64,000 bases of DNA from Enterobacteria phage VT2phi_272. The stretch lies in the sequence record NC_028656.1. The stretch is one strand, 5' to 3'. Of this stretch, positions 60,001-64,000 are shown piece after piece (position 1 is the first letter of the stretch; the number at the start of each line of letters is the position of its first letter). Made by a program: the position numbers.

Positions 60001-63000
60001 ACCTTCTGCACAGAGGGCTCCAATTGCCCAAAGGGGAACATTCTTATCGCGGCTCTGCGGATAAAATACTCTATCCTGAAGATATTCGCAAGGGGCCGTA
60101 TTACTCCCGTACCAGCAGTCTGACACCGGAAGAGACAATTGCATCGCGTTTTGTGCGCCAGATGCAGGATAAATTCCAGGTGCTGAAAGCTGTTCAGGAG
60201 AATATCCGTAAAACTGGCGGCAAAGTGGACGACAGTAACAACGCTTATATGGCGGAAGAACTCTTCCACGGGAAGGCGGAAAACGACCTGAACGTGATGA
60301 AGGAGCGCTACGTTCAGCCACTGGCTAAATTACTGGCGGACTACAAAATTGCGCAGGCCGATCTGGATGAGTACCTCTACGCCCGTCACGCGCCGGAACG
60401 TAACGCGCATATCGCGAAAATCAACCCGAAAATGCCGGACGGCGGTTCGGGGATGACCAACGCGGAAGCGGCGGAAATCATGCAGCGTGTACGTAACAGT
60501 GGCAAACAGGCACAGTATGACCGTCTGGCAGGGATTATTGACGATATGCTGGCCCGTCGCCGTGAGCTTATCCGTGAGGCCGGACTTGAAGAGAACGGTG
60601 TGGTGGATGCCTGGCAGAACGCCTACCGTTACTACGTTCCCCTGAAAGGTCAGGATGTTGACGGTGTGGTGTCACTGCCCCGTACAGGTAAGGGCTTCAC
60701 CATCGGCGGACGTGAAAGCAGGCAAGCCATGGGGCGTGCATCCCGGGCACAGTCTCCGTCCACTCAGGCGATACAGGACCTGAGCGAATCGCTGATCCGC
60801 CATCGCAAAAACGAAGTGGGTAACGCCTTCCTGAAACTGGTGCAGGATAATCCCGACAAGGATTACTGGCAGGTATTCACCGATGACAGACCGGATACCA
60901 TGCGGACGATTGCAGAGCGCAAGGACCAGGAAACTGGTGAAACCATTCGCGAAGTTGTCGAACGCCCTGTACCGATGGCAATGATGGCAGACCGGTACTT
61001 CACCACCAAAAAGAACGGCAAAACGTACTACATCAAACTCCATGATCCGCGCCTGATGCGTGCGATGAAGAATATGGGACCGGAAACCAGCAATGCCTTT
61101 GTTCGTACGCTGGGGAAAGTTAACCGCTTCCTGGCAACGGTGAACACGTCGTATAACCCGGAATTCCTGGTCAGTAACTTCATCCGTGACGTGCAGACGG
61201 CGGTGATGAACCTGAAGGCGGAGCAGGGAAGGAGCGACGGTAAACTGAAAGGGCTGGATAACTTATCCGCCCTGGCTGTGGTGAAAGACAGCCGTTCTGC
61301 CATGTCAGCCGTATACGCCAGTCTGCGTGGTAAAACCCTCACGGGAAAAGGTGCACAGTGGCAGAAGGTGTGGAAAGAGTTTGTTGAGGACGGAGGTAAA
61401 ACCGGCTGGTTTAACATGGGTGACCTTGAAGGCCAGCAGAAGGAAATGGATCGCCTTGTATCGCTGGCGAAGGGAGGATGGAAAGGCCAGAGTATCGGTG
61501 CATGGAATTCGTTCCTTAACCTTGTCGAGGATGCCAACGGGGCGGTTGAAAACGCTCTGCGTCTTTCTGCCTATAAACACGCCCGTGATGCCGGTTTGTC
61601 ACGCCAGCAGGCGGCGTCTCTTGCCAAAAACATGACGGTGAACTTTAACCGTCGTGGTGAGCAGGGAGCGCTGATGAACTCGCTGTACATGTTCGCCAAC
61701 GCCAGCATTCAGGGGACCGCAAACCTGGTGAGAACGCTCGGACATCTTAATGGCGACGGGCCGTTACTGGAGCGCCTTCGCTGGAAGAATCTCAATGTAC
61801 CGCAGAAAATCGCGCTTGCAGCTGTGGGAGCGGGTTATCTGCTTGGCTCGCTTAACCGCAGTGTTGCGGGGGAGGATGATGACGGGGTTAACTGGTATGA
61901 CAAGGTGCCGTCTCATGTGAAAGAGCGTAACCTCGTCATTATGAAATCGGTGTTCGGGGGCAAGGCCGGAGAGTACTGGAGTATTCCTCTGCCTTACGGG
62001 TACAACGTTTTCTTCCTGCTTGGTCACACAGCCGAAGGGGGGGCAGCGGGCGACCTGACCGCTTCACGTGCTGCCGGTAATGTTGTTGGTGGTGTGCTTG
62101 GGGCATTCAGTCCTGTGGGCAGTGAAACGTCGGAAACACTGTCCGGGGCATTGCTGAAAAATGCAGCACCGACAATTCTGCGTCCGTTTGCGAATCTTGC
62201 CATGAACGAAAACTTCATGGGGGCGCAGATTTACCAGGAGAACATGCCGTTTGGTACACCAAAACCTGACAGCCAGCTGGGAAGACGTTCAACGCCAGAA
62301 GCGTACAAGGCGTTTGCATCCTGGCTGAATGCGTTCTCTGGTGGCAGCCAGTACCGTTCCGGTGCGGTGGATGTCACGCCGGAATCACTGAAATACTGGA
62401 TTGACTATATCTCCGGAGGGACAGGGCGCTTCATTTCCAAAACCACGGATGCGGCGGTGAAATCGCTGAACGGTATTGATATACCGGAGCAGCAGGTGCC
62501 CTTCCTGGGGAAAATTTCAGGTGAGGTGATGCCGTATGCTGACCAGCAGAAGATGTACGACCGGATGACAGAGGTTGCGCAGTATCACGCAGAGCTGAAG
62601 AGTCTGACCGGTGCAGAAAGAACGGCGTTCATTGACGAGAACAACGGAAAATTGTCGATGAACGGGCTTATGCAGGATACCCGGAAGAGACTGAAGGATT
62701 TGCGTAAACAGCGTGATGCCATTTACGCCGACAGTACTCTCAGTCTGGCGCAACAGTCGGCGATGGTGAAATCGGTTGAGCGGGATATGAAAATTGCCGT
62801 GGATCGGTTTAACCGCGAGTACAACAAAAAAGTGGGAGTGGAGTAAAGAACATGCCCCGTACGGAAGTGCGGGGCATGCTTAACGGGGTGTGTACATAAA
62901 TGGGTACTGATATGACGATTATTTCGCCACTTTCTGTATTTAAATCAATGACTTAATACTTATATTCATTATATCCATTTAACTAAGAGGACAATGCGGC

Positions 63001-64000
63001 ATGAGTATACCCGCTAATGGACTGCGGGGTAAGTACGCTGCCGCTCGATTGCTTAAACCCTCGCCATTTATGCCGGGTTTTTATCATTTTTCTTAATGTT
63101 TTCCGCACGTTCTGCTTTTTGGCGTGCTTCTGCTTTGCGCTTGTTGCTCATGTCGTTACGGATCTGTGCATGACTCATTAACGCGAAGATAAAGGTGCCG
63201 CCGCAGATGTTCCCCGCTAAAGTAGGTAGTGCGAAGGGCCAGATGAAATCGCTCCAGTGCAGCGTACCGTTAAACACCAGATAGAGGATTTCAACAGAAC
63301 CGACAACGATGTGAGTGGTGTCACCCAGGGCAATAAGCCAGGTCATCAATATAATCACCACAATCTTTGCCGCACCCGCTGCAGGAAACATCCATACCAT
63401 AGTGGCGATCAGCCAGCCGGAAATGATCGCGTTGGCAAACATCTCGCTGGGGGTGTTCTTCATCACATCCATGCCGATTTTGACAAATGCATCGCGAGTT
63501 TCTTCATTGAAGATTGGCATATATTCAAATGCCCACGCCGCAATACCTGTCCCGAGAATATTACCCAGCAGCACGACGCCCCATAACCGCATAAGTAAGC
63601 CAACGTTGCTCATTGTCGGTTTTTGCATGACGGGTAGTACCGCAGTCACGGTGTTTTCGGTAAATAATTGCTGGCGGGCCATAATGACGATAATAAAACC
63701 AAAGGTATAACCGAGATTCTCCAGCAAGAAGCTGCCCGGCACACCTTCCAGTTCGACATGAAATATCCCTTTTGCCAGTAATGAAGCGCCCATCGACAGA
63801 CCCGCCGCAATGGCTGACCACAGTAGTGCCATTGCGTCGCGTTCCAGCTCTTTTTCACCATCCTGGCGGATATGCTCATGAATTGCCATCGCCCGGGAGG
63901 GGAGTCGATCTTCATCTATTTCTATTTTTTTGCCACGCTCTTTTTCTTCGCTCTCAACTTCAATTTCGTCGCTGTGTTGATCAATTTTGTCGTTGTCCAT

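Follow-up and report, generated by a model that had tools for sequence, protein, structure and literature searches.

Introduction

Most of the genetic elements that target tRNA genes use the 3' portion of their target, which they restore (PMC1635311), while recombination involving the 5'-distal portion of such a gene is considered to be considerably rarer (PMC6563490). In the present study we analysed a stretch of 64,000 nt from Enterobacteria phage VT2phi_272 (NC_028656.1), which we call the window and which constitutes a Stx2a-converting lambdoid prophage, with attention to the junction with host DNA at its right-hand end, where a 5' piece of argW, the gene for tRNA-Arg(CCU), adjoins phage sequence. 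Elements that are 5'-distal and of reversed orientation were reportedly described by Zhao and Williams in 2002, according to the work that cites them.

This site has been dealt with in two literatures under different names. In genomic studies on Escherichia coli strains that produce Shiga toxin (STEC) it is called 'argW' and is routinely typed by polymerase chain reaction (PMC8309913; PMC8065619). In the second literature, which concerns phage Φ24B, Int alone was found to integrate, and Int together with Xis to excise, plasmid-borne att sites in vivo (PMC3064807). The Φ24B sites contain a '24-bp central crossover site', work without integration host factor, and have a minimal attB between 62 and 93 bp and a minimal attP between 350 and 427 bp (PMC7581858), the primary attB being described as '250 bp upstream of intS' (PMC5247750). 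The words tRNA and argW are absent from the three Φ24B papers cited here. In the portions available to us of the literature holding both '24B' and 'argW' there is no passage connecting them, and a broader search yielded only the work on IntS/KplE1 and on Kapi1. The Φ24B core itself is said, in citing papers, to have been first defined by Fogg in 2007.

Results

Structure of the junction at the yfdC end

We identify positions 62753-63012 of the window, with a high degree of confidence, as the attR of a Stx2a-converting lambdoid prophage inserted into argW, the tRNA-Arg(CCU) gene, at its 5' end and carrying a P4-like tyrosine integrase of the Φ24B type. The identification starts from the 24-mer GTCCTCTTAGTTAAATGGATATAA, which is present at 62969-62992 on the minus strand with zero mismatches and is equal to nucleotides 1-24 of the tRNA-Arg(CCU) called by ARAGORN in two E. 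coli genomes. In the tRNA gene it spans the 5' strand of the acceptor stem, nucleotides 8-9, and the D stem-loop as far as the third base in the 3' strand of the D stem. It is the single match in the window even when up to three mismatches are allowed, and 100 shuffles produced none. We take this orphaned 5' fragment of argW as the 24-bp attachment core, since it also coincides with a duplication annotated in GenBank and with a published Φ24B primer, both of which are detailed below. A sequence-only reading of the window had already claimed identity to nucleotides 1-24 on the minus strand with phage sequence directly adjoining, and this proved to be exact; the interval that it assigned to the junction, 62847-63067, does hold the junction but represents the whole intergenic stretch, in which the tRNA piece occupies only 62969-62992.

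The DNA to the left of the core (up to 62968) is of phage origin and comprises the stop codon of an LPD38-domain tail-region gene (62844-62846), a hairpin, and an AT-rich arm that reaches 62968. The tail-side arm of attP kept in attR can be delimited to 62753-62968 from its extent in the smallest working Φ24B attP, with inclusion of the last 94 nt of the LPD38 gene. On the host side, the 75 nt at 62993-63067 agree at every position with the native yfdC-argW spacer, as found in a genome free of Stx phage; this segment (minus strand) is the native argW leader and upstream region, severed from the tRNA body, and is equivalent to the B' side in the published attB. It is followed by the complete host gene yfdC (63068-64000, minus strand), of the formate/nitrite transporter family, identified from the annotation under the matches in 5,426 of 5,426 genomes. 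All 5,426 genomes match the host side, most of them with a tRNA-Arg annotated at the junction position, and host homology in other E. coli genomes begins at about 62966-62969 of the window.

Searches for a tRNA at the yfdC end were negative with ARAGORN, with Rfam at the gathering threshold and with Rfam at E<=10, and neither a second copy of the core nor any tRNA-like signal was found at that end of the window. The sequence-only reading had held that an intact tRNA or an attachment core at this end would tell against it. An intact tRNA is missing here by ARAGORN and Rfam, and the core that is found is the 24-mer itself, as expected for an attR, and is not counted against that reading.

The rebuilt argW beside the integrase

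At the opposite end of the window, where the same reading had placed the integrase, an open reading frame at 1-804 (plus strand) encodes the 3' part of a tyrosine integrase, namely the last 267 codons and the stop codon of a gene of 389 codons that is cut at the window edge. This reading frame is identical to the C-terminus of the integrase of E. coli strain 272, a genome in which both window ends are found at 100% identity and in which position 1 of the window falls 366 nt inside the integrase gene. The full-length integrase contains the Arm-DNA-bind_3 and Phage_integrase domains (Pfam) and is P4-like; it is identical to the Int of Φ24B at 379 of 389 positions (97.4%) and to that of phage 86 at all 389.

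An intact argW is rebuilt next to the integrase, beyond the left edge of the window. In strain 272 the intact tRNA-Arg(CCU) lies 195 nt past the integrase start and is transcribed away from the integrase, which places the rebuilt gene about 560-590 nt to the left of window position 1. In this attL the tRNA body, nucleotides 25-75, is joined to a copy of nucleotides 1-24, and the intact argW of strain 272 and the window junction have exactly the 24-mer plus one base in common. When the junction is aligned with argW and with a locus without Stx phage, as an attL/attB/attR alignment, host identity gives way to phage sequence precisely at the two ends of TTATATCCATTTAACTAAGAGGAC (the core on the window plus strand), plus one base. 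A full argW with a direct repeat of the core to the left of the integrase is found in the genomes that are colinear with both window ends, and the first of the two alternatives of the sequence-only reading, a crossover in the 5'/D-arm region with the tRNA restored past the left edge, was thereby borne out. Dozens of records, TW14359 and EC4115 among them, have both window ends on one strand at a distance of 61-66 kb, and attL and attR are each present in 209 of the 5,426 complete E. coli genomes.

attP and the region of strand exchange

The attP reconstructed by joining the two arms at the core is found as a contiguous sequence, with 100% identity over 368 nt, in the induced phages phi345, phi346, phi349 and P27, and is about 92% identical in phage 86 and Lyz12581Vzw. 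A comparison of five attP sequences shows no variation in the 24-mer and either A or G as the 25th base, the tail-side arm having diverged and the integrase-side arm being nearly identical. The core TTATATCCATTTAACTAAGAGGAC is found at attR, at attL, in the five attP sequences and in Φ24B, and in GenBank records of Stx2a phages (LC616031, for example) precisely this 24-nt segment bears the annotation 'duplication due to insertion'. Since attP and attB have the 24-bp core in common, strand exchange must fall inside these 24 bp. The D stem provides within them a short dyad (GTTA/TAA) whose loop is 8 nt long, in agreement with the way in which the core sites of tyrosine recombinases are usually laid out; strand exchange would then take place around the D-loop, between the two halves of the dyad.

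Two motifs of the TGTAC kind on the tail-side arm, TGTGTACATA (62889-62898) and GGGTACTG (62902-62909), are candidates for arm-type integrase motifs, and two repeats tie the segment 62889-62898 to copies on the integrase-side arm. The repeat search in attP returned many short two-copy matches, among which only the TGTAC family was retained, for its conservation across genera. The TGTAC motifs present on both attP arms may represent the arm-type sites of the integrase.

Comparison with the Φ24B recombination system

All the published att primers of Φ24B map onto this locus, and the 'Int F' primer consists of nucleotides 1-19 of the window 24-mer. By mapping the published constructs we located the 49-bp 'B arm' at nucleotides 25-73 of argW and the B' arm on the upstream side. 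The smallest working attB extends from -20 to +73 of argW and the failing 62-bp site ends at +42. The 'unusually long, asymmetric attB' reported in 2020 is thus, from the position of these constructs, essentially the entire tRNA gene, and the Φ24B core is the 5' end of argW. Regarding attP, in the published results a construct with 216 bp on the tail side recombined and another with 171 bp, and with a shorter integrase side, did not, the lengths being those given by our mapping of the primers.

The supplement of PMC7581858 states arms of 187 + 139 bp for attP350, the primers of which map to 171 + 155 bp, and the attP350 R primer is printed there in the orientation of a forward primer. These discrepancies affect which arm interval is inferred to be essential.

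The window prophage is like Φ24B in its integrase, in the position of an xis-like gene, in the 24-bp core and in the att primer sites. The xis-like gene is a 60-aa helix-turn-helix reading frame (788-970, minus strand) that overlaps the 3' end of the integrase gene, at the site where Φ24B annotates xis (excisionase), and its copy in strain 272 (positions 7004-7186 of our locus L001) matches Pfam HTH_17. The remaining prophage, unlike Φ24B, is another Stx2a phage, and its attP is 100% identical to that of the Traversvirus P27-type phages phi345/P27. By analogy with Φ24B, given the 97.4% identity of the integrases and the identical core, integration at the window site would be dependent on Int and excision on Xis.

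Comparison with other elements at tRNA genes

The junction, the core and the integrase are already known, and we are dealing with an ordinary attR of a well-studied class of Stx2a prophages. Those located at argW in O157:H7 strains TW14359 and EC4115 and in non-O157 STEC have the same junctions with 100% identity, and the window differs from them only by indels inside the prophage.

The Stx prophage departs from canonical 3'-targeting in that its core consists of nucleotides 1-24 and the displaced piece is a 5' fragment. It resembles instead the 5'-distal class, of which there are archaeal examples too: the core is at the 5' end of the gene, the integrase adjoins that end and is divergent from the tRNA, the 5' fragment is displaced to the far end of the element, and the upstream sequence has to be supplied by the element. 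With respect to that class, the present case is distinguished by its target, argW in Enterobacterales, and by an integrase type that is experimentally active (Φ24B). The Φ24B-type system is an experimentally active example of this minority 5'-distal class.

The same tRNA gene harbours a second element. On the 3' side of the rebuilt argW of strain 272 (L001 8535-8609) stand intS and about 8.5 kb of a P22-like remnant, and a copy of argW nucleotides 53-75, with one G missing, is found 8.5 kb downstream (L001 17139-17160), on the far side of the IntS remnant. This repeat agrees with the core of KplE1, which consists of 16 nt at the 3' end of argW (PMC2951348), and the IntS neighbour shows the canonical features of 3'-targeting. 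The IntS elements of the KplE1/CPS-53, HK620 and Sf6 types, one of which adjoins the prophage, have in common with it the tRNA gene and a P4-like integrase with Arm-DNA-bind_3. Unlike the Stx prophage integrase, to which it is identical at 88 of 422 positions, IntS is co-oriented with the tRNA, downstream of it, and uses a 3' core. argW is targeted at both ends by two unrelated integrases, that of the Stx phage at the 5' end and that of an older IntS element at the 3' end.

Conservation of the integrase-tRNA spacer

Integration at the 5' end cuts argW off from its own upstream region, which is left behind at attR. There, on the minus strand, we read a -10-like TATACT (63009 to 63004) that ends 11 nt before the native tRNA +1; a consensus promoter scan did not call the native argW promoter, and its only call over both E. 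coli junctions was TTGATT-N18-TATTAT at attL.

A set of 33 loci with relatives of the integrase was collected. Twenty of them, representing about 17 other Enterobacterales genera and having integrases 57-91% identical, contain a tRNA-Arg(CCU) located 171-204 nt upstream of the integrase, on the opposite strand and with its 5' end facing the integrase. Together with the E. coli attL they provide 21 spacers, the others being 53-78% identical to that of E. coli. A motif TTGnnn-N18-TAnnnT, aimed at the tRNA and ending 38-39 nt before the tRNA +1, is present in 21 of 21 spacers, while shuffling yields it in 0.35 of 21 on average and in 2 at most. Three GTAC motifs are found within 1 nt of -182, -158 and -147 in 18 of the 21 spacers, and in the other three all of them are displaced owing to differences in spacer length.

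More distant relatives, with integrases about 52-63% identical (loci L025-L031, L034, L036 and L040, among which L029 is an E. coli contig), lack a tRNA in the 3 kb upstream. A change of target at about 65% integrase identity seems to have occurred in the clade, and the distant relatives probably use another one.

Discussion

With the 5' end as the target, lysogeny would give a new promoter to argW, a single-copy gene whose tRNA decodes the rare codon AGG. From the conservation of the spacer motif and its match to the consensus, we infer that the element supplies the promoter of argW in lysogens. In the mechanism that we propose, argW of the lysogen would be transcribed from an element-borne sigma-70-type promoter, TTGATT-N18-TATTAT, located 39 nt upstream of the tRNA +1; RNase P would trim the longer argW leader, and the orphaned native promoter would fire a short transcript into the phage arm. 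In its general form, the proposal states that Φ24B-type integrases constitute an Enterobacterales-wide clade at the 5' end of argW, that a promoter of the element takes over the only tRNA-Arg(CCU) gene and leaves the native promoter stranded, and that attB is approximately the whole tRNA gene (-20 to +73). We regard this general proposal as evenly balanced between being right and being wrong. Neither the promoter swap, nor the tRNA-sized attB, nor the identity of the core with the argW 5' end was found stated in the searchable literature.

Several observations weigh against this proposal or against parts of the underlying reconstruction. The support for the promoter consists of conservation and a consensus match, and conservation among homologous spacers indicates constraint and not its purpose; the motif might instead bind a protein involved in recombination or in the regulation of the integrase. 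The TGTAC motifs are short, and the step from attP427 to attP350, in which two of the three integrase-side motifs are lost together with activity, shortens both arms at once. Cleavage positions were sought through natural polymorphism of the core and none was obtained, the 24 bp being invariant in all attP examined; in a core without polymorphism the cut sites are not readable from the sequence. Finally, attL is located outside the window and was deduced from genomes that match both ends of the window identically; the distance between the two is exactly 64,000 nt in none of them, the nearest being 2-18 nt off and the others differing by indels of the size of an insertion sequence (IS).

The alternative that survives best accepts the core and the junction as described above, but takes TTGnnn-N18-TAnnnT as a site bound by Int, by Xis or by some host factor, or as an element of integrase regulation. 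In such a case argW of the lysogen would depend on read-through transcription or be poorly expressed, and the decoding of AGG might be covered by the phage tRNA-Arg(UCU) at 25403-25479. The arm must indeed contain sites for recombination proteins, considering that attP needs 350-427 bp, and the homology of the 21 spacers implies that conservation alone names no function; furthermore, a spacer of 18 nt is suboptimal for sigma-70, and the phage has tRNA-Arg genes of its own. Nevertheless, the motif faces the tRNA, and the positions of both hexamers, the 18-nt spacing and the distance of 38-39 nt to the tRNA +1 are kept while the sequence inside and around the motif varies. The inactivation of the only tRNA-Arg(CCU) gene would also be unusual, as elements that target tRNA genes restore the gene as a rule (PMC1635311). 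We consider this explanation unlikely on the whole, although it retains a substantial minority share of our belief.

A much less probable explanation, to which we give very little credit, was the second one offered by the sequence-only reading: the 24-nt piece would be the debris of a tRNA truncated by a later rearrangement, such as a deletion, IS activity or recombination between prophages. O157-type genomes are rich in similar prophages and IS elements, the prophage itself contains an IS3-family element, and its length differs between strains. However, the break coincides exactly with the edge of a 24-bp repeat of which the other copy is the beginning of the intact argW by the integrase, attP with the 24-mer is contiguous in free phages, and an identical junction is present in 209 genomes, at the same site that Φ24B uses experimentally as its crossover site. 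A later truncation is refuted by the attL/attB/attR alignment together with the free-phage attP.

The idea that the 24-nt match is coincidental, or comes from another tRNA-like element, with the host junction elsewhere, has nothing in its favour beyond the shortness of the match and is refuted, to the point of being negligible, by the shuffles at up to three mismatches and by the adjoining host sequence, in which the match is followed by 75 nt of native yfdC-argW spacer and then by yfdC, matched in every one of the 5,426 genomes and mostly with tRNA-Arg annotated.

The modest value of the finding lies in joining the two literatures that name one site either 'argW' (STEC) or '250 bp upstream of intS, 24-bp core' (Φ24B). 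Should the element's promoter be unequal to the native one in strength or regulation, the decoding of AGG could be altered by Stx2a lysogeny at argW. The junction itself is common in STEC, and the promoter swap together with the tRNA-sized attB represents a small addition.

Other features of the prophage

The hairpin of the tail-side arm, located just past the LPD38 stop at 62851-62878, is a G+C-rich inverted repeat with 12-nt arms and a 4-nt loop, and its stem is also predicted in the minus-strand RNA fold. A consensus terminator scan did not call this hairpin; judged from the predicted fold, it may terminate transcripts arriving from both directions.

The genes for the stx2 A and B subunits are found at 25570-26810, adjoined by the RNAs AsxR and STnc100. 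The phage carries, shortly before stx2A, a trio of tRNA genes (25228-25479, plus strand), for a Met-type tRNA with anticodon CAU, tRNA-Arg(UCG) and tRNA-Arg(UCU); as a speculation, the last of these could partly cover the decoding of AGG if lysogeny alters the expression of argW, although such tRNAs may also be present in Stx phages located elsewhere. The IS3-family element (about 30991-32204, minus strand) consists of reading frames of 108 and 296 aa with an ALIL frameshift pseudoknot at 31807-31923. The span between the window ends ranges from 61.4 to 66.4 kb in otherwise identical genomes, that of strain 272 being 1,310 nt longer than the window, and this variation suggests gain or loss of IS elements.

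Two pairs formed by a C4 antisense RNA and an isrK Hfq-binding RNA were detected at the Rfam gathering threshold at 3474-3656 and 15429-15616 in the early region of the prophage, both on the minus strand and 12 kb apart. Beside one of these C4/isrK pairs, genes for antitoxins of the HigA and ParD families are annotated in this early region in strain 272 (L001 3251-4228, approximately 3746-4723 of the window).

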